Positions 3,646 to 45,267 of a stretch of DNA of 46,022 bases are shown here, piece by piece (position 1 is the first letter of the stretch; each line of letters starts with the position of its first letter). The stretch lies in IMG/VR virus record IMGVR_UViG_3300045988_121238, one strand, 5' to 3'. Under the pieces are notes generated by a model. The model was not told the DNA's origin. It was given only the letters and a program-made list of their open reading frames with translations, and ran no database searches. Source of the stretch: a virus. The translations under genes were made by a program, and so were the position numbers.

Positions 3646-5082
3646 ATGTCGATAAGCGAACAACAGTTTTTGGATCACGTGCGCAAGCGGTGCGAGGACG
3701 ATTTCGAGTTCTTTGTGCGGTACTTTTTCAAGACATCAACTGGGCAAAAATTCAGAATCGCGGATTTTCACCGTCAAATTTTTTCGATTCTGACAGACGT
3801 TTGGAACGGCAAGAAAACGCACATCATTATCAACATCCCTCCGCGTCACGGGAAAACCCTGATTGCCGTCAAGATGTTTTCGGCGTGGTGCTTTGCGAAG
3901 AATCCGACTTGCGAATTTATTCATCTTTCGTACTCGGACGAACTTGCGCTTGACAACTCAAATTCAATCAAAGAGCTTGTTTCGTCAAAGGAGTTTCAGC
4001 AACTTTGGCCGACAGAGTTGAAAAAAGAATCGGATCGGGCATGGAAAACAGCGGCAGGCGGAGCGTTCTTTGCGCGTTCAGCAGGCGGCCAGGTGACTGG
4101 TTACGGTGCGGGTAAGGTAAATGACTTCACAGACGGGCACGGATTTGGTGGTGGAATTTTGCTTGACGATTTGCTCAAGCCAGATGATGCCAATTCGGAC
4201 GTGAGGCGAGAGGCTATCAATCGTCGCTGGGACGAAACGATTAAGAGTCGTTTCAACTCGACAAGGACTCCGTGCATCCTCATTATGCAAAGAATCCATG
4301 AGGATGATTTTTGCGCGATGCTGATGCGCGATAAGGAATATCATTTCGAGCGCATCATTTTGCCCGCGTTGCTCAATGAGGGAACGGATCACGAGGAATC
4401 TCTTTGGCCTGACAAGTACACGGTCGAGCAATTGCACGCCATGCGCGACAAAAATGGATACATGTTCGCTGCCCAGATGCAACAAAACCCGAGGCCGCTG
4501 GGCGGCGGAATCATAAAGAGCGCGTGGTTTGGCTACTACGACGTTCTTCCGAAGATCAAGTACCGAGCAATCTTCGTTGATACGGCTCAGAAGGAAAAGG
4601 AGTCGAACGACTACCAAGTTGCAAGCCTGTGGGGGCTTGGAGAAGACGGAGATCTGTACCTCATCGACATGATGCGCGATAAGTTCCAAGCGTATGAGTT
4701 GGAGGTGCGCATCCCTGCGTTTTGGAACAAGGCCAAGGCCGATCGCACATCACAGCTACGTTTCATGGGCGTCGAAGACAAGGCATCCGGAACGCAACTG
4801 ATACAGAACATCAGGCACAAGATCAGACCGGCAATTCCGTTGAAGGAAATAGAACGATCGCGCTCGAAACTAGAGCGCGTCATGGACGTGCAGGGCTACA
4901 TCGAGTCTGGGTACGTGAAACTTCCGCGCAGCGCCTCGTTCTTGAGTGACTTCATTTCCGAATGCGAGGCGTTCACGGCAAACGACAGTCATCCGCACGA
5001 CGACCAGATCGACACTATGTGTGATGCAATTACAATGATGCTGGCAAAGAAACACACGCTTTACGGCGATGTTGAATGGTGA
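3646..5082 (+). CDS. terL: Terminase large subunit
   Basis: Walker A IPPRHGKT and Walker B-like ILLDDLLKPDDA. C-terminal nuclease-type acidic motifs (FVDTA..., HDDQIDTMCDAI). 478 aa. Confidence 0.9.
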   Translation: MSISEQQFLDHVRKRCEDDFEFFVRYFFKTSTGQKFRIADFHRQIFSILTDVWNGKKTHIIINIPPRHGKTLIAVKMFSAWCFAKNPTCEFIHLSYSDELALDNSNSIKELVSSKEFQQLWPTELKKESDRAWKTAAGGAFFARSAGGQVTGYGAGKVNDFTDGHGFGGGILLDDLLKPDDANSDVRREAINRRWDETIKSRFNSTRTPCILIMQRIHEDDFCAMLMRDKEYHFERIILPALLNEGTDHEESLWPDKYTVEQLHAMRDKNGYMFAAQMQQNPRPLGGGIIKSAWFGYYDVLPKIKYRAIFVDTAQKEKESNDYQVASLWGLGEDGDLYLIDMMRDKFQAYELEVRIPAFWNKAKADRTSQLRFMGVEDKASGTQLIQNIRHKIRPAIPLKEIERSRSKLERVMDVQGYIESGYVKLPRSASFLSDFISECEAFTANDSHPHDDQIDTMCDAITMMLAKKHTLYGDVEW

Positions 5083-6506
5083 TGAAAATGACGAATAAGA
5101 GAACAACGCCCATGTCCGACGGCTTGATTAACAAGATGACGGGGCAGGGCACGGACAGGTCGAAGCGATCCCACTTCATTTGGGGCTACGAAAACATCAA
5201 CAACTATCAGGCGTATGAAGCCGCCTATCAGACGTCGTGGATTGCTCGCCGAATTTGCGACGTTGTGGCCGCAGACATGACCAAAATGTGGCGCGAAATC
5301 AAAAGCAACAAGGCTGATGAAATTCGATCCGAAGAAGATCGTCTAATGTTGCCTGCAAAGTTCAATGAGGCCGTGCGCTACGCTCGCCTGTATGGCGGAG
5401 CGGCAATCATCCCGATCACAAATCAAGATTTGCGGCAGCCGCTAGACGCCCGAAAGATCAAAAAGGGCGACCTGAAGCGCCTTTTGGTGCTTGATCGTTG
5501 GTACGTGACCGGTGCAAACATCAACGTTATGGACGTTTTGGACGAGGATTTCAATCTGCCGTCTGAATACTATGTGAACAACTCCAAATCAGTTACCATT
5601 CACAAGTCGCACGTCATCCGAGTCATCGGCGAGCCTTTGCCGATTCGCCTGGCTTTCCAAGCGCAGGGGTGGGGCGATTCGTCGTTGCGCCAGGCAATGG
5701 AAACCGTGGAGGACTTTTTGGCGTCAATCGGGGGCGTTGCAGAGTCCTTGCAGGAATTTAACGTCGACACGATCCGCAAAGACGGCCTGATGGACGAAAT
5801 CGGCACGGATCAGGAAGATCGAATCCTTGCGCGATTCCGTGCTTGGGGCATGATGAAATCGGTCTTCCGCGTTTCGTTGCTCGATGGCGATGAACAGTTC
5901 GAACGCAATCAGCTAACCTACTCGGGCGTTGCTGACATGATCGAGCTGATGATGAAGATGGTTTCGGGCGCGTCGAACATTCCTATGACGAAACTCTTTG
6001 GCGATTCTGCCAAGGGTTTAAACGCAACGGGCGAAGGCGACGAAAAGAACTACTTCGACTACATTTCGTCGCAACAGGCAGCGAAAATTGATCCGGCGCT
6101 TCGCAAGCTGGACGAGATTCTTGTGCGTTCTGCGATTGGCGACTTCCCGCAAGATTTCAACTACGCTTGGAATCCTCTTGCAACGCCGAGCGAAAACGAG
6201 GTTGCAACGGCCAATAAGACGCAGGCCGATGCCGACATTGCGTACCTTGAGGCAAACGTCATCACGGTGTCGCAGATTCAGCGAAACTTGCAAGCCAAGG
6301 AGAAATACCAATTCGACCCGAAGCGCATTGATGAGCTTGAACGCTTTGAAAACGAAATTCCGATGGAGGAAATGCTGAATGAGGGAAATTCGGGCGACGC
6401 GGGCGCAGGCGAAGGCGTTGACGAGCCTCCGCAAAAGAATGCTGACAAGGGCGTTCCCGCAAAGAGTGGAAGTGCAGTACAGGAAAAGCCTGTATCAGGT
6501 TCTTGA
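5076..6506 (+). CDS. Portal protein (DUF1073-like)
   Basis: 476 aa directly after terL. N-region ...YEAAYQTSWIARRICDVVAADMTK resembles the DUF1073 portal family. Low-complexity acidic and Gly-rich tail. Confidence 0.8.
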   Translation: MVMKMTNKRTTPMSDGLINKMTGQGTDRSKRSHFIWGYENINNYQAYEAAYQTSWIARRICDVVAADMTKMWREIKSNKADEIRSEEDRLMLPAKFNEAVRYARLYGGAAIIPITNQDLRQPLDARKIKKGDLKRLLVLDRWYVTGANINVMDVLDEDFNLPSEYYVNNSKSVTIHKSHVIRVIGEPLPIRLAFQAQGWGDSSLRQAMETVEDFLASIGGVAESLQEFNVDTIRKDGLMDEIGTDQEDRILARFRAWGMMKSVFRVSLLDGDEQFERNQLTYSGVADMIELMMKMVSGASNIPMTKLFGDSAKGLNATGEGDEKNYFDYISSQQAAKIDPALRKLDEILVRSAIGDFPQDFNYAWNPLATPSENEVATANKTQADADIAYLEANVITVSQIQRNLQAKEKYQFDPKRIDELERFENEIPMEEMLNEGNSGDAGAGEGVDEPPQKNADKGVPAKSGSAVQEKPVSGS

Positions 6507-8202
6507 CGGAATCACGAAGGCCACGCTTGACGCGATCAGCAACCCGCTGAAAACCGACTACGTGGCCGACGCATTCGGCGAGTACCTTGGGCGCATTCTT
6601 TCCGAACTGCTTGAACGCTTTACGGGAATCCGATTCCAGCGCATTGCCGACACAATTGCCCGTGCATTTGTTGATGACTCTCTCAAGTTCTCCGACGGTG
6701 TGTTTTCGCACGATTCGGCAAGGTCAGTCGGAATCAACATCTACAATACGCCTGAACTGAGAAAAGTCATCAGTCTTGCTACGGAGCAGAATGCGCAGTT
6801 GATTCGAAGCATTGCGTCTCAGCACCTTAACGCTATTGCGGGAATCGTCTATGAAAACGTGATGGCTGGCAACAGACCGAGCGCTATTGAAGCCGCAATT
6901 CGATCTTATGGCGTGACCAAAAGCCGTGCGCGATTGATTGCTCGTGACCAGACTTCCAAGGTTCTCAGCTCGATCAGCAAAGCACGGCAGCGGGATGCAG
7001 GTTTTGAGTTCTTCAAGTGGGATACCTCTCACGATGAGCGCGTAAGACCGTCTCACCGAGAGGCGCAAGACAGGGTGACGAAGTACGGCGTCGGCGTTTA
7101 CCGTTGGGATGAACTGCCAACGGTTGACGGAGAAAGGACGAGTCCCGGCATGGCTATAAATTGCTTCCCCGGATCAGTCAAGGTAAATATCTTGTACGGT
7201 GCGGAAAAGCTGTTTAGGCGCGTCTACTCTGGCAAATTGGTTGAGATCGTTACGGACGATGGCGTAGTTTTGCAATCTACACCCAATCACCCGATACTTA
7301 CTCGCAAAGGATTCGTCCCCGCAAATGCTTTGAATGTCGGCGATGAGGTTATCAATGTCCCACATCAGGGATTCCTCGTCGGCGAAGTAAACGGCAATAG
7401 TGCGGATGTTGCTTTCGAGGAGCTTTTTGGAACGCTTTTTGAACTTTTCGGTTCTGAATCGGTATGCACTACAGCAGGAGATTTCTACGGCGACGCATCC
7501 GTTAACGAGGATGTCAATGTTGTATCGATCGACTGGGTGCTGTGTGGAAACGCTGAATCCAAAAGAACGCAATTGCTCTGCAAGGACTTCCTCACCCGGG
7601 CCGAAAAATTTTTTGGTCTGCTTGACGAACCTTGTGATGGCAGATTTGTGGATGCTTGCGGATTTTTTGGGCTTCCCCCTGACGGCATCGTGAGCCTTGC
7701 GGGTAAGTTCTTGTCTTTCTTCGGTCGTTGTGTTTCGCATTCTGATGAACATAGCCTCGCTTCGGTTGGGCTGTTGTATTCCTCCTTCGTTAAGAATGCG
7801 GGTGATAACGTTACGAGAGACTTTGTATTGCTCGGCAATGCGTTTGATGCTAATGCCACTAAGAACAAGCGACTTGAGTTCCTCAAAAGGTATCTCTATT
7901 CGGTTGTGTGCCTTGACTTTATTTCGGGGAATTTTGTAACCCCACGAGCGAAGGCGTTCACTGACAGTGTCGGGGTGTATTCCTATGCAACGACTAGCAT
8001 CAGTGAGGGTCTTCCCATCAAGCATCATTTGGTAAGCATCAAGGAAAAGAGACTTTTCGATTTTTCGGGACATGTTTATGACCTCCAAATGAAAAACGGA
8101 CTGTTTGTTGCTAACAGTATAGCAGTCAGCAACTGCCGTTGTGTTGCGTTACCGATTTTAGAAAGCGAGGTCGAAGAGTTTCAGAGGAGAAAACGAAAAT
8201 GA
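6379..8202 (+). CDS. MuF / SPP1-gp7-like head morphogenesis protein precursor containing an intein
   Basis: MuF-type motifs ...WDTSHDERVRPSHREAQDRV... PGMAIN|[intein]|CRCVALP. GGAGGA lies 9 nt before the ATG at 6379. Overlaps the portal 3' end by 128 nt. Confidence 0.85.
   Translation: MREIRATRAQAKALTSLRKRMLTRAFPQRVEVQYRKSLYQVLDGITKATLDAISNPLKTDYVADAFGEYLGRILSELLERFTGIRFQRIADTIARAFVDDSLKFSDGVFSHDSARSVGINIYNTPELRKVISLATEQNAQLIRSIASQHLNAIAGIVYENVMAGNRPSAIEAAIRSYGVTKSRARLIARDQTSKVLSSISKARQRDAGFEFFKWDTSHDERVRPSHREAQDRVTKYGVGVYRWDELPTVDGERTSPGMAINCFPGSVKVNILYGAEKLFRRVYSGKLVEIVTDDGVVLQSTPNHPILTRKGFVPANALNVGDEVINVPHQGFLVGEVNGNSADVAFEELFGTLFELFGSESVCTTAGDFYGDASVNEDVNVVSIDWVLCGNAESKRTQLLCKDFLTRAEKFFGLLDEPCDGRFVDACGFFGLPPDGIVSLAGKFLSFFGRCVSHSDEHSLASVGLLYSSFVKNAGDNVTRDFVLLGNAFDANATKNKRLEFLKRYLYSVVCLDFISGNFVTPRAKAFTDSVGVYSYATTSISEGLPIKHHLVSIKEKRLFDFSGHVYDLQMKNGLFVANSIAVSNCRCVALPILESEVEEFQRRKRK
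7162..8133 (+). mobile_element. Intein (324 codons) inserted between N and C of the MuF 'NCRC' motif
   Basis: Block A CFPGSVKV, block B LQSTPNHPILT plus GFVPANALNVGDEV, blocks F/G HVYDLQMKNGLFVANSIAVSN followed by +1 Cys (CRC). Removing it restores ...PGMAIN-CRCVALP. Confidence 0.8.
7174..8073 (-). CDS. Antisense-encoded putative homing endonuclease inside the intein: two HTH segments plus a DUF559/Vsr-like PD-(D/E)XK core
   Basis: ATG at 8073 with GGAGG at 8082-8086. HTH-like LTDASRCIGIHPDTVSERL and SIKRIAEQYKVSRNVITRIL. Core EEVLAEQLRSFGF...VDRYNIDILVNGCVAVEISC...KKLLESNIRTIAVYF resembles the DUF559 pattern (E..L..L...Q..v..y.vD....vavEvdG...R...L...G..v.rf). Normal protein-like composition, unlike the sense frame here. 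Confidence 0.6.
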   Translation of the reverse strand: MSRKIEKSLFLDAYQMMLDGKTLTDASRCIGIHPDTVSERLRSWGYKIPRNKVKAHNRIEIPFEELKSLVLSGISIKRIAEQYKVSRNVITRILNEGGIQQPNRSEAMFIRMRNTTTEERQELTRKAHDAVRGKPKKSASIHKSAITRFVKQTKKFFGPGEEVLAEQLRSFGFSVSTQHPVDRYNIDILVNGCVAVEISCCSAYRFRTEKFKKRSKKLLESNIRTIAVYFADEESLMWDIDNLIADIQSICGDESFASKYRVIGCRLQNYAIVRNDLNQFARVDAPKQLFRTVQDIYLD

Positions 8203-9320
8203 ATGAAGTTCAAATAACGGATAGGGCGAGTGATTTTCTTGGAAACTCGACTCGCCAGACGTTGGAAAATGGTTTTTTGAAAGTGAAGGGGCGCGTTGCG
8301 CGTTCTGGCATTCAAAGCTACTACCGGTGCGAATTGGGATTGAAGGACGAGCCGTTTAAGCGCATTCGCCTTTACCGCCCGCCTGAAGTGGTTTTGTCGG
8401 ACGAGGTTTGCAAAATGTTCGACGGTGTTGACGTGACGAATGAGCACCCGAAAGAGTTCATTGACAAGATGAATTATCGAAAACTGACTGCGGGGGTCGT
8501 CCTTGGAAATGCGCAAAAGGACGAAGAGAACCCGAATTTCATTGTCTGCGACATGCTGATCAAGGACGCTGATACAATTAAGTCAATTGAGGCGGGTAAA
8601 ATCCAGTTGTCAGTGGGATACAGAAACACCATTGATTTCACGGATGGTGTTACGCCTGAAGGTGAAAAGTATGACGCAAGAGTGGATAAAATCACTCTCG
8701 TTAATCACGTCGCACTTGTGCCTCGCGCGAGAGCTGGCATTGAGGCGCGTCTTTTCGATTCGTTCGGAGGAAAAATGAAGAATCTCAAAATCGGCGATGC
8801 TGAGTTCGAGTTGAACGACGATGTGGCCTCGGCCATTGAATCGCGCATCAACGAACTGGAGGCGCGCGCCAAGACCGCCGAAGAAGCTGTCGGAATGAAG
8901 GACAGCGAAATCGGCGAACTCACCGCTAAGGTTTCTGATCTCGAAAAGAGTTTGGAAGATGCCAAGGCAATGATCTTGACTGACGAAGATATTAAGGAAG
9001 TTGTCAAGAAGACCGCGACCTTGATGGACGATGCCCGCAAGATTGCGGGCGAAACTTTTGTGTGCGACTCTTTCGATCCGCTCGAAATCAAGAAGGCTGC
9101 GATCAAGGCTGCCTATCCTGACGTTGCGCTCGACGACAAGGCCGACGACTTCGTTAGCGGCTTCTTTGCTCACGCTGTCAGCACCGCTGGCGTTGGTATG
9201 AACGACTCGCTGAAGAAGCTCGGCCAAGCTATGACGGACGTGGACGACGATAAGAAGGAAGACCAAGACGCTTACAAGAAGCATATGCAGAAGATTGCTG
9301 ACGCTTGGAAGTGCAAGTAA
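8199..9320 (+). CDS. Scaffolding/prohead core protein (DUF2213-like N-domain plus coiled-coil C-region)
   Basis: GFLKVKGRVARSGIQSYY...IRLYRPPEVV...FDGVDVTNEHP resembles DUF2213. Acidic coiled-coil tail. ATG overlaps the upstream stop (ATGA) and GAGGAG lies upstream. Confidence 0.65.
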   Translation: MNEVQITDRASDFLGNSTRQTLENGFLKVKGRVARSGIQSYYRCELGLKDEPFKRIRLYRPPEVVLSDEVCKMFDGVDVTNEHPKEFIDKMNYRKLTAGVVLGNAQKDEENPNFIVCDMLIKDADTIKSIEAGKIQLSVGYRNTIDFTDGVTPEGEKYDARVDKITLVNHVALVPRARAGIEARLFDSFGGKMKNLKIGDAEFELNDDVASAIESRINELEARAKTAEEAVGMKDSEIGELTAKVSDLEKSLEDAKAMILTDEDIKEVVKKTATLMDDARKIAGETFVCDSFDPLEIKKAAIKAAYPDVALDDKADDFVSGFFAHAVSTAGVGMNDSLKKLGQAMTDVDDDKKEDQDAYKKHMQKIADAWKCK

Positions 9321-9341
9321 TTTTTTTAAAGAGGTAACTAA

Positions 9342-9824
9342 ATGGCAATTACCAAGACTGTGGCTCTTGTCCACGACAAGGCTTACGCGGGTATGGTGGC
9401 TGACCTTCAGCTTGCTAACCGCGTTTCTCGCTTTAATGCGACTTCCGCTGTGATTCCGTTCGGCACGGCAGTGCAGGCTGACACCGATGCGGGCTCTATG
9501 AAGCCCATCGCATCTGGCGGCACCGCAATCGGCGTTCTCGTGCGCGAACTCGTCGACGTGACGAACCCCGGCAGCGAACAGGGTGTGAACGTTGGCAAGA
9601 CCGGCACTGTCCTGACCGATGGTGTGATTTGGGTCAAGGCTTATGAAGCTGTCACTGTGGGCGGTAATGTCTTCGCTGGCGTTGGCGCGACTGTGAAGGG
9701 CTATTTCTGCGCGGCCGCCGGCTCGGAAGGCACTGAAGCTGTTCAGATCACTGGAGCTAAGTACCTTGACGCGGCTTCTGCGAAGGGTGATCTGGTTCGC
9801 ATCAAGATTACGATTGGGGGTTGA
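9342..9824 (+). CDS. Putative head decoration/cement protein (DUF2190-like)
   Basis: 160-aa Gly/Ala/Val-rich beta protein between scaffold and capsid genes. GAGGT precedes the ATG. Confidence 0.5.
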   Translation: MAITKTVALVHDKAYAGMVADLQLANRVSRFNATSAVIPFGTAVQADTDAGSMKPIASGGTAIGVLVRELVDVTNPGSEQGVNVGKTGTVLTDGVIWVKAYEAVTVGGNVFAGVGATVKGYFCAAAGSEGTEAVQITGAKYLDAASAKGDLVRIKITIGG

Positions 9825-9829
9825 TTGAA

Positions 9830-10876
9830 ATGAAGAAGAATATTGTTTCCGTCGCTGTGTCGGACGCCATGGCTGAACGCTTTGGCCTTGCCAGCGCAAA
9901 TGTGAGCTATAACGCCGCCATGAACGACGGCGATAGCGGCGTGGCTTTTATGATTTCTCAGCTGGCTTACATCGAGCCGAAGCTGTATGAAACGCCTTAC
10001 GCTGACATCTTCTTTGAAAATCTCGTCCCGATCGACACCGCTATTCCTGAATGGACGGAAACTGTCAACTACCGTTCTTACGATGGCGTCACGATGGGCA
10101 AGTTCATCGGCGCTTCCGCTGACGATCTGCCGTCCGTCGCCATGTCGGCTGAAATCCACGCGGTTCAGCTCGGCTATGCTGGCATGAGTGTGCAGTACAG
10201 TCTTGACGAGCTGCGCAAGTCGACCGCCATGAACATGCCGATCGACCAGACGCAGATGCGTTTTGCATACCGTGGCGCCAAGGAACACCAGCAGAAGATC
10301 GTTTTCTTCGGTGATGCCAAGCGCAAGATGTTCGGTCTTTTCAACCACCCGAACGTCACCAAGACGAACTCGAACGTTGACTGGAACACGGCCAGCGCTC
10401 AGGAAATTCTGGACGACATCAACAAGTTCCTTGGCGACATTTGGGAAGACACGAATCAGCGATTCATGCCGAACACCCTGCTGCTCGACACCAAGCGCTA
10501 TCGCCTGATCGCGAACAAGCCCTACGGCGTTTCTGCCGACGGCACGCAGGTCGGATTTACGACGGTTCTTGACTTCCTGAAGCAGAAGAATCTCGCAACG
10601 ATCGAACGCGGCATTCAGCTCGACATTCGCCCGATCCCGTTCCTGCTTGCATCCCAGCTGACGGCCAATGGCGTGACGGGCAATAAGGATCGCATGGTGG
10701 CTTATGAGAAGTCTCCTGACAACCTTGTGGCCTACATGCCTATCGCTCCGCGATTCATTGCTCCCCAGTACCATAACCTGATGATCAAGGTGCCGATGGA
10801 GTACAAGATTTCCGGTACTGAATTCCGCTATCCGCAGTGCGCGGCCTACTGCGAATTCGATACGGCTATCTCGTAA
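9830..10876 (+). CDS. Major capsid protein (DUF2184-like)
   Basis: Position after scaffold and decoration genes. ...QLAYIEPKLYETPYADIFFENLVPID... resembles the DUF2184 coat family. GGGGG lies 9 nt before the ATG at 9830. Confidence 0.75.
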   Translation: MKKNIVSVAVSDAMAERFGLASANVSYNAAMNDGDSGVAFMISQLAYIEPKLYETPYADIFFENLVPIDTAIPEWTETVNYRSYDGVTMGKFIGASADDLPSVAMSAEIHAVQLGYAGMSVQYSLDELRKSTAMNMPIDQTQMRFAYRGAKEHQQKIVFFGDAKRKMFGLFNHPNVTKTNSNVDWNTASAQEILDDINKFLGDIWEDTNQRFMPNTLLLDTKRYRLIANKPYGVSADGTQVGFTTVLDFLKQKNLATIERGIQLDIRPIPFLLASQLTANGVTGNKDRMVAYEKSPDNLVAYMPIAPRFIAPQYHNLMIKVPMEYKISGTEFRYPQCAAYCEFDTAIS

Positions 10877-10885
10877 GGAGGCGTC

Positions 10886-11167
10886 ATGATCGCTGTTCGC
10901 AATGTCGGTCTTTGCAATGTTCGGATCAACCTCGATGAAAATCGCCGCTTTCTGATTCCTGTAGGCGGTGCTGAAAGTGTCGAGTTGCCCGACGATGTGA
11001 AGAACTTGTCTTTCTTTAAGGATCGACTGGATGATGGCTCTTTGGTCATCGAGCGCGATGAGCCGGATCAAAAGGAGCCTGAAAAGAAGCGCGGCCGACC
11101 TGCAAAGGAAAAGCCTGCCGACCCCGATGTGGACGACAAGTCCGAAGCGGATGAGGCAAAAGCGTAA
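10886..11167 (+). CDS. Hypothetical head-module protein with a basic/acidic tail containing an AT-hook-like KKRGRPAKEKP
   Basis: AAGGAGG precedes the ATG. 93 aa. Followed by an intrinsic terminator. Confidence 0.5.
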   Translation: MIAVRNVGLCNVRINLDENRRFLIPVGGAESVELPDDVKNLSFFKDRLDDGSLVIERDEPDQKEPEKKRGRPAKEKPADPDVDDKSEADEAKA

Positions 11168-11180
11168 GGCATAGCCCGAA

Positions 11181-11209
11181 GCCCTCCGAATTTTCGGGGG
11201 GCTTTTTTT
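11181..11209 (+). terminator. Rho-independent terminator after the capsid block
   Basis: GCCCTCCG-AATTTT-CGGGGGGC followed by TTTTTTT. Confidence 0.7.
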
Positions 11210-11222
11210 AATGGAGAAAAAC

Positions 11223-11567
11223 ATGGATGAAACTCAGACCTTACCTGTCAGACACGATTTGTCTGCGGCAGTTGGTGAAAAGTGCGAGTTCTGTGTCGAT
11301 GTTGATGGAGACATTAACCTTGATTTCGCTGTTGCGAATTACACTGTCAAGGAAGATTCTTCGGATGGCGACGTTGTGAAATCGGGTTGCCTCAACTTCG
11401 TTGATGGAAAGGCCTTTTTCGAATTGTCGAGCGCAGAAACGAAGACGATGGGCCAAGGGCTTTTCTACTATGATTTGTGGCTGAAAGATGGCGACGACAT
11501 GATTCGGCCTATCGTTTACGGTCAAATCCATTTGGTGAAACTTCCGACGGAAGGGGGTTGCGCATGA
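11223..11567 (+). CDS. Small beta-rich protein, paralogue of 29843..30187
   Basis: Both share ...F.L.....T......G.F.YDL.L.......I..G...L... and both precede a fibre gene. GGAGA lies 5 nt before the ATG at 11223. Confidence 0.5.
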   Translation: MDETQTLPVRHDLSAAVGEKCEFCVDVDGDINLDFAVANYTVKEDSSDGDVVKSGCLNFVDGKAFFELSSAETKTMGQGLFYYDLWLKDGDDMIRPIVYGQIHLVKLPTEGGCA

Positions 11568-17094: not shown

Positions 17095-17129
17095 AATTCG
17101 AATAGCCATTTTTAAGGAGCTTCAAAAAA

Positions 17130-18269
17130 ATGTCTTATCCTGCATCGAAAGTCATTCGGGTCAACACTCGAATCTCTCCGCAGGGACTGAGCACGGCGAA
17201 CTTCGGTTCTGCAGTGCTGATTGTCCCGAAAACCGACGCGACCAGCCTCTCGAAAGATACCTTCAAGACGTATTCCGACGTTCAGGGTGTGGCGGCCGAC
17301 TTTGCTGAAACCACCGAGTCTTACAAGGTCGCGAGCGCTTGGCTTGGTGGAACCCCTGCCATTTCCAGCCTCATGATCTGGGTGCGCGATTCTGATGACG
17401 CATCTTGGGCTGACACGCTCAACAAGATTCGCAACAAGGTTTGGTGGTACTGGACGTTTGTCACGTCTGCAACTTATGAGCAGGCAGAAGACGTCAAGCA
17501 GATTGCCGCATGGTGCGAAACCAACGCGTCGATGTTCGTCAACTGTCAGACTGGTGCCGCCGCTACGTCGATTCGTGACGAGCTGGAAGATTCGGATATC
17601 GCTTCCGCCTTGACGAAGTTGGGCTATCGCCATTGCTTCACTGCGGCGCACGCAACGGACTCCTATTCGGGCATCTATCTCGCAAAGCATTTCGCACGAG
17701 TCAATTACTCGGCAGACAAATCGACGATTACGGGCGAATACAAAAAGTCGCCCGGCCTTGCCGCTGAAACGCTCGAAGCGACTGCATACGCGGCGATGGC
17801 AAAGGACACCAAGAAGGTGACCTTCTACAGCGTCGTTGATTTGCAAGGCTCGAACGACACGGGGCGCTGGCTGAATACGTGGACGCACTCGACTTACGGC
17901 GAGTGGATCGACGACGTGGTAAACCTCGACGCCTTCATCAACGCGATTCAGGTAGGCATTTACAACATGATCGCCAACCAACCGACGAAGCTGTTGCAGA
18001 CGACGACGGGGCAAGCGATGGTGATTGCTGCTGCCCGCGCTGTTTGCGAGCAGTACATTTCGAACGGGTTCCTCGGTGAACGCAATTACACCGACCCGGA
18101 CGATGCACAGGAAAAGTACACTCGCGGCTTTGAAATCTTGACGCGTCCTGAAGACATTTTGAACCTGAGCACGTCCGACCGAGCTAATCGCAAGTGCGCT
18201 CCCGTTCGCATTCGTGTTTTCCGCGCGGGCGCAATCCACACTGCCGACATCGACATCGATGTTTACTGA
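17130..18269 (+). CDS. Tail sheath protein (DUF3383-like)
   Basis: 379 aa. N-terminus MSYPASKVIRVNTRISPQGLSTANFGSAVLI resembles DUF3383 sheath proteins. Followed by tube and chaperone genes. Confidence 0.7.
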   Translation: MSYPASKVIRVNTRISPQGLSTANFGSAVLIVPKTDATSLSKDTFKTYSDVQGVAADFAETTESYKVASAWLGGTPAISSLMIWVRDSDDASWADTLNKIRNKVWWYWTFVTSATYEQAEDVKQIAAWCETNASMFVNCQTGAAATSIRDELEDSDIASALTKLGYRHCFTAAHATDSYSGIYLAKHFARVNYSADKSTITGEYKKSPGLAAETLEATAYAAMAKDTKKVTFYSVVDLQGSNDTGRWLNTWTHSTYGEWIDDVVNLDAFINAIQVGIYNMIANQPTKLLQTTTGQAMVIAAARAVCEQYISNGFLGERNYTDPDDAQEKYTRGFEILTRPEDILNLSTSDRANRKCAPVRIRVFRAGAIHTADIDIDVY

Positions 18270-41020: not shown

Positions 41021-41665
41021 TCAGAACGGGTTGTCGTCAAGCGGAGCGTCGTCGTAGGGATGCGCAACCGGAGCCGACGGCGTGACGGGCTTGGCTTCCT
41101 TGTCCTTCAGGTTCTTGAACTTAGCCTCGACCGCCTTGGCCTCGAGGTTGTTCAGGACTTCCTTCGCGTTCTGCCCGGTAACCTGATGGAACGGCGTGAT
41201 GATGTTCATCTGGTAGGTCGTCTTGATTTGCCCCTCGTGCTCATACTCGCGGTTCTCGCGCTGGAGGAGCAGGCCGATGGTCTGGCCCTCGAGTGCGCCG
41301 ATGCGATAGCCCGGGCGCTTCGTGCCGTCGCGGTTAAAGACCTGCGCTTGCGTAGCCTCAACCTTATCGAGCTTGAGCACGGCAAGCAGCGCGTCCATGA
41401 TGTCGGCCCCGAAGGTGCGATCGCCGTTGCGAGAGGAGACGAAGAGGCGGATAAAGGCCATCTTCTCGCCGCGTTCTTCAACGGTCTCGCCGCATTCCGT
41501 CCAACGGAGCGCCTTGAAGGCGAACTCGACGTAAGTCGCGCCCGCCTTGCTTTCGGCGACTTCAACCTGTGTGAGGGTGCCGACGTACTTGCCGGACTTG
41601 TCGATGCCGTTGAAGCCGGCAACCTTTTCCGCGGACTTGCGGTTCATGGTGAAGGTAGTGATCAT
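41021..41665 (-). CDS. ssDNA-binding-like protein (DUF669-type) with an SSB-like acidic C-terminal tip
   Basis: Coupled to the Sak4-like gene, a common DUF669 partner. The C-terminus YDDAPLDDNPF resembles the SSB tip (DDDIPF). Confidence 0.55.
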   Translation of the reverse strand: MITTFTMNRKSAEKVAGFNGIDKSGKYVGTLTQVEVAESKAGATYVEFAFKALRWTECGETVEERGEKMAFIRLFVSSRNGDRTFGADIMDALLAVLKLDKVEATQAQVFNRDGTKRPGYRIGALEGQTIGLLLQRENREYEHEGQIKTTYQMNIITPFHQVTGQNAKEVLNNLEAKAVEAKFKNLKDKEAKPVTPSAPVAHPYDDAPLDDNPF

Positions 41666-42324
41666 TCTTCAGTTTCCTTTTCGTTAGTAATGCCGTAGTA
41701 GTCGCAGATGACGCGGTCGATTGCCGCGAGGTCGTTCTCTATGTACTGCTCCGAGAACATTCCCATCGGCGATTTGACTGTGTCAGAGCCTGAGTTCTGA
41801 GTTGAGAAGAGATAGCGTCCGTTCTCGACGTGCGTCCGAAGGACTGTGGTGAACATGCCCTCGACAACGATCTTGTCGTCTAATAATTTCCCCAATGTCT
41901 TGATACGGGTGTTGCCGAACTCATCAGAGGTCGTGTGAGCGAGGACGTAGACGCGCTTGTTTTCACCGAGCTCGGAGGCGGCCTTGGCAATGTCGAATCC
42001 GGCCCCGCCGATCTCTGTGAACTTGCCGAACCCCTTCACGTTGCGTGCAGCCATGTACATCGATGCGAGGATGTACTGCCAGTCGTCCACGACGATCACG
42101 TCGAACGGGCTCGCGTGCATGTAATTGATGATTGCCTGCGGGTTCGAGCAGACGAGGATGTTGTTCCCATCGCCCTTCTGCTTGATCTCCTTCCACCCAG
42201 TGGAGCGGAAGGGGAGCGGCTTGCGCACCGGCTGGATCAAAAGTGTGTTTTTTGGGTCGAGGTTTCGAAGTGAACAGGTCTTGCCTGTTCCGCTCTCGCC
42301 CAAGATGAGGCATGCGTAGCTCAT
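41662..42324 (-). CDS. Sak4-like RecA-fold ATPase (AAA_24 family)
   Basis: MSYACLILGESGTGKT (Walker A), FDVIVVDD (Walker B), ...YVLAHT.... ATG at 42324 follows GAGGACG. The longer track ORF has a Ser/Thr/Arg-rich implausible extension. Confidence 0.75.
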   Translation of the reverse strand: MSYACLILGESGTGKTCSLRNLDPKNTLLIQPVRKPLPFRSTGWKEIKQKGDGNNILVCSNPQAIINYMHASPFDVIVVDDWQYILASMYMAARNVKGFGKFTEIGGAGFDIAKAASELGENKRVYVLAHTTSDEFGNTRIKTLGKLLDDKIVVEGMFTTVLRTHVENGRYLFSTQNSGSDTVKSPMGMFSEQYIENDLAAIDRVICDYYGITNEKETEE

Positions 42325-42334
42325 GGTGTCGTCC

Positions 42335-42541
42335 TCAGAAAGGGATTTCGTCGTCGCCGATGGCGTAGAAGTCTTCAAGCGACTTGTCGTAGATCGGCTC
42401 GGGACGCTTTGCACGTTCGCCGAACCACTGGGCTCGCTCGAACTCGTCGCGGCTGGCGAACTCTGGGTACGGGTCGAAGTCGACCTCGTCCTCTGGCTCG
42501 GGCATCGGTAGCTCGAGCGGCTCAAGTGAAGTGATCGTCAT
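42335..42541 (-). CDS. Small acidic protein ending in an SSB-tip-like GDDEIPF
   Basis: 68 aa from the ATG at 42541 (GAGGAG upstream). Highly acidic. The last residues are DDEIPF. Confidence 0.5.
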   Translation of the reverse strand: MTITSLEPLELPMPEPEDEVDFDPYPEFASRDEFERAQWFGERAKRPEPIYDKSLEDFYAIGDDEIPF

Positions 42542-44619: not shown

Positions 44620-45267
44620 TTACAACCGCTTGATGCAAAGACCGACGTAAGCGCGGCCGATTACTTCAATGCTTTCTGGTGTTGTGTTGATGGGCTCGTA
44701 AAACTTGTTGTCGGAAAGAAGGCGCAAGCCCTCTGGGGTTGCTTGTACGCGCTTGACGAACAAGCCTTCGCCGATACGGACGACATACATGCCATCTCTA
44801 ACGATCTTCTTTTCTGAGATGTCAACAATGACAGCGTCTCCTTCGTGGAGAGTTGGCTCCATTGAATCCCCGAACGCCGCCATTATCTGAAGAGAACGAA
44901 CGTTGGCAGATGGGCAGTACCTGCGGATGAATCCCTGAGAGACTCGCACAAAACGGATGAGTTCCAGTTCATCGGTATTCAGAAAGCCGTGGCCACAGGA
45001 AACCTCAGCATTGACGTGCGGGATAGAAACAATGCCGTCCTCAACCAGGGTTTGGACGGGTGAGTTGGCATCGCCAAACATAACATAGGCGGGTGTCACT
45101 CCAAATATCTCGCAAAGCGCTTCCAGCCCTTCTCGGTTTGGTTCGCTGTGGCCGATAGCCCAGTTGCGGACGGTGACGTTTGAAACGCCTACTTTCTTTG
45201 CGAGGCTTCGATACGAAAGCCCCGACTGCTCGATTAGAGCTTTGATGCGTTCGCTTACAGCTGACAT
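44620..45267 (-). CDS. cI-like repressor (HTH plus S24 LexA-type autopeptidase domain)
   Basis: HTH SYRSLAKKVGVSNVTVRNW. S24 motifs AFGDSMEPTL and ...GLFVKRV. AAGGAGG precedes the ATG. Divergent from the cro-like gene. Confidence 0.85.
   Translation of the reverse strand: MSAVSERIKALIEQSGLSYRSLAKKVGVSNVTVRNWAIGHSEPNREGLEALCEIFGVTPAYVMFGDANSPVQTLVEDGIVSIPHVNAEVSCGHGFLNTDELELIRFVRVSQGFIRRYCPSANVRSLQIMAAFGDSMEPTLHEGDAVIVDISEKKIVRDGMYVVRIGEGLFVKRVQATPEGLRLLSDNKFYEPINTTPESIEVIGRAYVGLCIKRL

Follow-up and report, generated by a model that had tools for sequence, protein, structure and literature searches.

The 46,022-nucleotide (nt) stretch of viral DNA in IMG/VR record IMGVR_UViG_3300045988_121238, which we call the window, contains a phage head-morphogenesis (MuF) gene that is interrupted by an intein, and the strand opposite this intein carries a second gene. 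We interpret this arrangement as a homing intein whose Vsr-like endonuclease is antisense and separately expressed, and in which stop codons are avoided in both directions, and we estimate the probability of this interpretation at roughly 85%. The layout is rare but already known, VSR-like examples having been described in 2025, and the window's element extends the known set to many phages of Proteobacteria.

The sense open reading frame (ORF) occupies positions 6379-8202 on the plus strand (607 amino acids, aa) and is uninterrupted by stops. It encodes a MuF, or SPP1 gp7-type, head-morphogenesis protein, matching Pfam PF04233 (residues 154-262), phrog_15127 (residues 29-604) and phrog_324. 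The MuF sequence is broken after ...PGMAIN, and resumes as CRCVALP... with 23 codons left before the stop. The insert between these points is an intein of 324 aa (972 nt; 7162-8133, plus strand) whose first residue is Cys (7162-7164; AIN|CFPGS) and whose last is Asn (8131-8133; AVSN|CRC); it opens with CFPGSVKV and closes with SIAVSN. On the minus strand, the homing-endonuclease gene occupies 7174-8073, with its ATG at 8073-8071 and 299 codons followed by TGA at 7176-7174. Its stop ends 12 nt past the intein's N-junction, and its ATG is 60 nt short of the C-junction. The two frames are in codon register: in both, triplets start at coordinates congruent to 1 mod 3, and endonuclease residue r is opposite intein residue s when r + s = 305. 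A preliminary description of this DNA gave the same coordinates, register and junction distances, as well as the same positions for the GGAGG and TGcTATACT elements discussed below. It also proposed that the ORF fits inside the intein. This holds with respect to the junctions, but the ORF is not confined to the part of the intein between the splicing halves, because its last 64 codons overlap Hint-N and its first 22 overlap Hint-C.

We conclude that the antisense ORF is a real gene. The AlphaFold2 model of its product has a pLDDT (predicted local distance difference test) score of 89.6. At the N-terminus, the two helix-turn-helix (HTH) segments that had been proposed are supported as modules (residues 7-43 and 63-96; 7786-8055, minus strand) by matches to Pfam HTH_Tnp_ISL3 and HTH_23 above the cut-offs, and both profile and Foldseek searches find paired/Tc3-like bipartite HTH matches in this region. 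A helical linker separates the HTH modules from a Vsr-like, EDxHD-related nuclease core (residues 161-257; 7303-7593, minus strand). When the single antisense sequence was searched against the PDB with phmmer, nothing useful was found, and a profile of 15 sequences was needed. This profile matched the nuclease domain of I-Bth0305I (3r3p_A) with E=2.5e-6 over profile positions 161-249, and Foldseek aligned the model to 3r3p_B with probability 1.00, a template-modelling (TM) score of 0.65 and a root-mean-square deviation of 3.5 Å over 96 columns. The core had previously been described as DUF559/Vsr-like; the Vsr-like assignment stands, but we reject membership in DUF559, as there is no match to PF04480. 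Pfam PF18741 (MTES_1575) gives a sub-threshold match, at 21.6 bits versus a cut-off of 38.2.

In I-Bth0305I, as in the window's endonuclease, a DNA-binding region at the N-terminus precedes a C-terminal Vsr-like nuclease; the EDxHD motif of I-Bth0305I consists of E170, D196, H213 and D222 (Taylor et al. 2011, PMC3239194; PDB 3R3P). Residues E170, D196 and E206 of I-Bth0305I are equivalent to E161, D187 and E197 of the window's protein. Invariant residues in the window's family are E161, Y184, D187, E197 and R214, of which E161, D187, E197 and R214 are invariant across 19 sequences. However, His213 and Asp222 of I-Bth0305I are not conserved in this family, which has instead the invariant Arg214 (with Lys216); the position of H213 varies among Y, N, S and H. 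Because the His and the second Asp are not conserved, we classify the antisense protein as a sister lineage of the EDxHD family, nearest to the I-Bth0305I lineage, rather than as a strict member. Two further differences are that I-Bth0305I is intron-encoded in the sense orientation, whereas the window's endonuclease is antisense within an intein, and that proteins of the window's family carry at the C-terminus an additional beta-hairpin that is absent from 3R3P.

Homologues of the endonuclease gene occur both embedded in MuF inteins, as in the window, and as free-standing genes. We made a codon-by-codon alignment of five non-redundant homologues with 42-48% antisense aa identity, and compared the variability of codon positions in the different regions. 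In the MuF extein, the variability of position 1 minus that of position 3 has a bootstrap range of -0.29 to -0.18, so that sense position 3 is the most variable, and Hint-N has the same sense pattern (-0.25 to -0.08). In the insert, the sign is flipped (+0.07 to +0.17; of 2000 resamples, 0 gave a value of zero or less), and the most variable position is sense position 1, which is antisense position 3. Amino acid identity in the insert is 0.53 for the antisense frame versus 0.40 for the sense frame. Antisense conservation peaks at 7690-7869, across the second HTH, with an identity of 0.71-0.79 versus 0.36-0.59 in the sense frame. Judged by these substitution patterns, the antisense frame in the insert is under purifying selection.

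Each frame also avoids TTA, CTA and TCA, the codons that give a stop in the other frame. In the in-register antisense phase, this avoidance costs only synonymous choices of Leu and Ser codons. An exact recount of the antisense ORF agrees with earlier hand counts of 21 Leu codons, 24 Ser codons and zero TTA, CTA or TCA codons. The preliminary description expected about 11 of these codons, a number that holds under uniform usage. However, the codon usage of the window (27 genes, 8672 codons) predicts only about 5, for which the probability of observing zero is 0.005, or 0.003-0.013 with other backgrounds.

We consider the comparison of homologues to be decisive. Among 14 embedded homologues whose codons were counted, all 14 have zero TTA, CTA and TCA codons, where 1.6-14 are expected; per-locus P values range from 0.2 down to 7e-9, and are lowest in AT-rich hosts. 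In contrast, five free-standing homologues, whose opposite strand holds no frame that needs to be kept open, contain 9-19 of these codons, versus 10-17 expected from their codon usage. This difference indicates that selection also keeps the sense frame free of stops, in agreement with the earlier suggestion that the host frame is kept translatable. Moreover, both frames are open and in register in 18 of 18 embedded loci examined, and a broken antisense frame, which the preliminary description treated as evidence against a gene, was found in none of them. These loci come from Klebsiella Jedunavirus, Edwardsiella MSW-3, a Vibrio phage, Aaphi23 (Aggregatibacter), Salmonella Jersey-like phages, Gordonia Vivi2 and metagenomic contigs (including locus L027), with sense identity as low as 24% among the metagenomic contigs.

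The endonuclease gene appears to have expression signals of its own, located within coding sequence of the intein. A Shine-Dalgarno sequence, GGAGG (8082-8086, minus strand), is present 8 nt upstream of the ATG, inside the region that encodes block F, and most embedded homologues have GGAG or GAGG at the matching position. The Leu codon of block F is CTC in 10 of 13 embedded loci, versus roughly 17% CTC usage in the window, and this CTC supplies the GAG of the Shine-Dalgarno sequence on the opposite strand (8074-8090 and 12 related loci). It is possible that the Shine-Dalgarno sequence represents a third layer of constraint on the same bases. A candidate extended -10 element, TGcTATACT (TGCTATACT; 8116-8124, minus strand), is inside the block G coding sequence, and TGnTATAAT-like elements are also found in loci L012, L014 and L015. 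We dropped the idea of a positionally homologous promoter in embedded and free-standing genes, since the alignment of their upstream DNA is ambiguous.

We interpret the element as a composite mobile element: a class-1 intein in MuF, together with a homing endonuclease that the other strand encodes as a gene of its own. On the plus strand, translation of the MuF precursor would run across all 972 nt of the insert. The endonuclease would be made from its own signals, namely the GGAGG at 8086-8082 and possibly the extended -10 element at 8124-8116, so that its expression would be independent of the late head operon, and probably earlier. It would then cut MuF alleles lacking the intein, close to the conserved codons of ...PIN|CRC..., and recombinational repair would copy both the intein and the endonuclease gene into the cut allele. 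Finally, protein splicing would remove the entire 324-aa insert, including the junk linker, and would thereby restore MuF.

Several observations weigh against this interpretation. The His and second Asp of EDxHD are not conserved in the clade, and the window's protein has Tyr at the position of I-Bth0305I His213; the catalytic chemistry may therefore be different, or activity may have been lost in some members. The candidate -10 element was recognized by sequence match only and is not uniformly conserved among relatives; in a scan with the sigma-70 consensus, which needs a -35 element, the element at 8124-8116 was not called, and the number of sites was no higher than in shuffled sequences. 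The penultimate residue of the intein is Ser in the window's clade (AVSN|C), not the usual His. Inteins without a penultimate His are known to splice. The absence of TTA, CTA and TCA codons at the single locus of the window is only suggestive (P of roughly 0.005-0.013), because three ordinary genes in the window, over 160-379 codons, have zero such codons as well. Lastly, a megablast comparison of the window with 50,697 phage records gave zero matches; the phage thus has no close relatives in the collection, and recent mobility of the window's copy is not demonstrable.

Other copies of the element are informative on mobility. Searches with tblastn found the endonuclease in 112 phage records, with homologues at 29-47% aa identity. 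The element is present in unrelated phage groups with hosts in Proteobacteria and Actinobacteria. Klebsiella phage KpTDp1 differs from RCIP0108, a phage of the same genus, by an exact 975-nt in-frame insertion at QPIN|CRC, with flanks that are 89.5% and 96% identical, and the junction is uninterrupted in many other Jedunavirus phages. Intein-less MuF proteins keep the N|C.C site. A patchy distribution of this kind, at a conserved Cys, is classically what marks a homing intein; cleavage, homing and splicing themselves are predicted. Other searches found less: with blastn, the locus matched phages only over 147 nt, in Edwardsiella phage MSW-3, and a word-indexed search of proteins yielded only 4 close relatives, since the antisense ORF is seldom predicted by gene callers.

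These data bear on the alternative that survives best, according to which the endonuclease is maintained but no longer drives homing. The protein might have been domesticated for DNA binding or regulation, or might be a nuclease directed at a different target, with the intein now inherited vertically in this phage. This scenario would accommodate the loss of the general-base His and the second Asp, as well as the window phage's lack of near relatives. In addition, according to a recent preprint, several VSR-like antisense inteins look vertically inherited (bioRxiv 10.1101/2025.01.02.630785). However, the acidic triad of E161, D187 and E197, along with R214, is invariant over very divergent hosts, the element is polymorphic for presence and absence at an exact site among close Klebsiella phages, and it is found in unrelated phages of both Proteobacteria and Actinobacteria. 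We therefore regard the loss of homing as unlikely.

The splicing domain of the intein is recognizable on both sides of the insertion. The Hint-N half (intein residues 1-69; 7162-7368, plus strand) contains Cys1, block A (CFPGSVKV) and block B (TPNHPILT). The Hint-C half (residues 283-324; 8008-8133, plus strand) contains block F (FSGHVYDLQ) and block G (AVSN), and is followed by the +1 Cys. A profile of 16 MuF-intein homologues matched the Mtu RecA intein in the PDB (2imz; E=9.3e-8) across block B, in which TPNH corresponds to intein residues 40-43. The same profile also matched the KlbA, RadA and NrdJ-1 inteins, and Hint-C resembles the KlbA intein at the motif level. Positions C1, T40, P41, N42, H43, P44, F301, G303, H304, V305, N324 and the +1 Cys are invariant across the 16 homologues. 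In the AlphaFold2 model of the intein, pLDDT is 76-94 for Hint-N (residues 1-69) and 82-96 for Hint-C, with residues 289-324 modelled confidently, and the top PDB matches of this model in Foldseek are intein splicing domains, with probabilities up to 1.0. On the strength of these profile and model comparisons, the insert is a bona fide class-1 intein with a Hint splicing domain, and is predicted to splice. Elsewhere in the family, the penultimate residue is Arg (ARN|C) in Gordonia phage Vivi2, Lys (AKN|C) in locus L021 and His (AHN|C) in the relatives from Salmonella phages.

It might instead be supposed that the insert is not removed by protein splicing, but is tolerated as a loop of MuF, as proposed for the ShiLan HNH insertion, or is cut out at the RNA level. 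Phage methylase genes do contain hidden endonuclease insertions that are out of frame and lack splicing domains (PMC11855218), the Pfam model Intein_splicing (PF14890) scores 23.2 here, under its curated cut-off of 35.8, and the penultimate His is absent. However, none of the 16 homologues departs from Cys1, TxxH, GHVY of block F, the terminal Asn or the +1 Cys, the model has a Hint fold, homology to the RecA and KlbA inteins is detectable, and the insertion is directly before a conserved Cys of the host protein. A mechanism other than protein splicing is thus highly improbable.

The sense read-through linker between the Hint halves (intein residues 70-282; 7369-8007, plus strand) is at the canonical endonuclease insertion site; its borders were placed by comparison with mini-inteins. 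The lack of an endonuclease in the sense translation, which had been noted previously, is borne out, as the sense reading of 7369-8007 matches zero Pfam families and is mostly modelled with low confidence (pLDDT <50 for residues 127-285, and an intermediate ~56-83 for residues 80-126). This 213-residue linker is free of constraint in the sense frame, apart from the requirement to lack stop codons. The sense frame does have the invariants FHGD and VD.V..D (7456-7537), but these mirror the catalytic strands VAVE and YNIDIL of the antisense protein. The moderate AlphaFold confidence of this sense segment probably results from covariation inherited from the antisense protein. We considered whether strands at intein residues 99-122 might be extra Hint blocks overlapping the nuclease's catalytic strands, but rejected this, since comparison with the RecA and KlbA inteins ends Hint-N at approximately residue 69.

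A final alternative, that the minus-strand ORF is an ordinary in-register shadow caused by codon bias and not a gene, is refuted: although the window has non-coding shadows of 375-493 codons opposite ordinary genes, and some of its real genes have zero TTA, CTA and TCA codons, the other shadows have no family matches, whereas the antisense ORF has HTH and nuclease matches, a model of pLDDT 89.6 with a fold match to 3R3P, free-standing homologues that are annotated or called as separate genes, and an antisense-frame substitution pattern. The shadow ORFs are at 8610-9899, 9743-11224 and 17112-18239 (all minus strand), opposite protease and decoration genes, the major head gene and a DUF3383 gene, and none of the three matches Pfam. 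Within the window, the major head gene, the DUF3383 gene and the gene at 9342-9824 have zero TTA, CTA and TCA codons, and the protease gene has two; codon bias alone can thus open an antisense frame in this genome.

The overlap of the endonuclease gene with the splicing blocks recurs among the embedded loci. Its stop is 3-48 nt past the N-junction in ten embedded loci with placed junctions, and its ATG is 60-63 nt before the C-junction in the seven loci measured. The endonuclease frame is open across Hint-N in 13 lineages; the product of the chance probabilities is ~1e-10, with lineages treated as independent. In the window, the overlapping segment encodes a C-terminal beta-hairpin tail (residues 259-297; 7183-7299, minus strand) that is antisense to Hint-N blocks A and B, and is truly dual-coding. 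The hairpin is modelled with a pLDDT of ~94.

Free-standing homologues offer a comparison for this tail. They are located at L013:455-1348, L016:4001-4894, L017:3587-4528, L018:2444-3346, L019:2501-3391 and L025:1284-2120. Among those with context, 6 of 6 are arranged tail-to-tail with a MuF gene that lacks the intein, at a distance from its stop of -7 to +4 nt, and the MuF C-terminus beside them retains the N|C.C intein target. The C-terminal tails of three of the five free-standing proteins tested are homologous to the embedded tail, with z = 5-16. The opposite strand of some free-standing genes reads a decayed block B (STANNPIF vs STPNHPIL) with stop codons, for example at L016:4718-4894, and tblastn searches of free-standing loci with Hint-N and Hint-C give weak matches (E of 0.007 to 1) at the right positions. 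For the first 24 endonuclease residues, homology between embedded and free-standing proteins is not significant alone.

Because Hint-N is homologous to other inteins, it must be the older reading of this DNA, and the tail hairpin may therefore have arisen by antisense overprinting. We tentatively suggest, at slightly below even odds, that the hairpin (residues ~240-297) was born by overprinting of Hint-N and that the free-standing genes adjacent to MuF descend from the embedded form. If this is true, the direction would be opposite to that of the usual model, in which inteins are invaded by free-standing endonucleases. A protein segment born antisense to a splicing domain would also be documented, in a family of more than 1300 clusters (1358 at E<=1e-30, most of them full length). 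The relation of free-standing to intein-borne homing endonucleases would then be understood differently. The overlap of the ORF with the splicing blocks and the descent of the free-standing relatives may go beyond the existing literature.

The preliminary description had regarded an antisense endonuclease within an intein as undescribed. However, the preprint by Gosselin, Arsenault & Gogarten (bioRxiv 10.1101/2025.01.02.630785) reports 63 actinobacteriophage inteins with non-canonical endonucleases, including anti-sense LAGLIDADG and anti-sense VSR-like enzymes. As cited there, anti-sense LAGLIDADG inteins have been known since 1998, and by 2002 included those of Synechocystis DnaX and a Chloroflexus SpoVR-like protein (Gorbalenya 1998; Gogarten 2002). 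The preprint lists minor capsid proteins among the hosts of non-canonical inteins, and gives 3R3P as the best structural relative. The actinobacteriophage VSR-like inteins share with the window's element an unsplit intein, an opposite-strand endonuclease between the splicing blocks and a Vsr-like nuclease related to 3R3P. With tblastn, we found homologues on the antisense strand of MuF in four Gordonia phages, Vivi2, Fosterous, Affeca and Angelicage (31-35% aa identity, E=1e-24 to 3e-21). These probably correspond to the preprint's minor-capsid clusters, although the phage names do not appear in its main text. Unlike the actinobacteriophage set, the window's copy resides in a temperate phage that has its closest relatives among phages of Proteobacteria, and its family reaches phages of Klebsiella, Edwardsiella, Vibrio, Aggregatibacter, Salmonella and others. 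In the passages of the preprint that were searched, an analysis of codon register or forbidden codons was not found.

Other known systems are similar to the window's element in some respects. Anti-sense LAGLIDADG inteins share an opposite-strand endonuclease with it, but differ in nuclease family and host genes, and are not homologous. In fractured genes (Dassa et al. 2009, PMC2677866), the intein is split, and a free-standing gene for a Vsr-like endonuclease separates its halves. They resemble the window's element in that the endonuclease insertion point of a phage intein is occupied by a Vsr-like gene that has expression signals of its own. However, in fractured genes the host gene and intein are in two ORFs and splicing occurs in trans, whereas in the window and 17 embedded relatives the sense frame is continuous. 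ShiLan-type HNH insertions (PMC11855218) likewise hide an endonuclease in an alternative frame of an insert that is open in the host frame, but this is a different frame of the same strand, the nuclease is HNH and there is no splicing domain.

The arrangement is far more widespread than in the actinobacteriophage set of the first report. In the GenBank records inspected, the endonuclease is unannotated: MSW-3, Aaphi23, Vivi2, KpTDp1, the Vibrio phage and two Salmonella Jersey-like phages. The seven records, corresponding to our loci L001, L002, L003, L011, L012, L014 and L015 (PP847084, NC_020082, KU963250, OM837731, NC_004827, NC_069150 and NC_073215), list a head or MuF coding sequence alone over the region. 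The metagenomic locus L027 is the reverse case, in which the endonuclease was called and MuF was truncated by the gene caller. Such loci can thus mislead gene callers. They also constitute a clean natural case of two proteins encoded in register on opposite strands, with measurable two-way selection and with free-standing homologues as a control. As practical leads, the intein tolerates a 213-residue unstructured insert, and its endonuclease belongs to a barely explored lineage of meganucleases whose likely target is predicted to be a conserved phage head gene.

The window as a whole is a tailed-phage genome or prophage, and is temperate. It encodes a terminase (3646-5082), a portal protein (5076-6506), a head protease (8199-9320), a major head protein (9821-10876), tail fibres, a Sak4-like annealing protein (41662-42522) and a CI-like repressor (44620-45264), and has no transfer RNA genes. 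The nearest MuF-intein relatives are the IMG/VR contigs L006 and L007. The MuF N-extein (6379-7161, plus strand) is SPP1 gp7-like, by the MuF family matches and by its position-3 variability. The listed MuF start at 6379 overlaps the portal gene, which ends at 6506, by 128 nt, and the real start is therefore probably downstream. The C-extein (CRCVALPILESEVEEFQRRKRK) and stop occupy 8134-8202 (plus strand), where intein-less relatives read ...PIN|CRCVARP... unbroken, and the MuF stop and the start of the head-protease gene share ATGA at 8199-8202.

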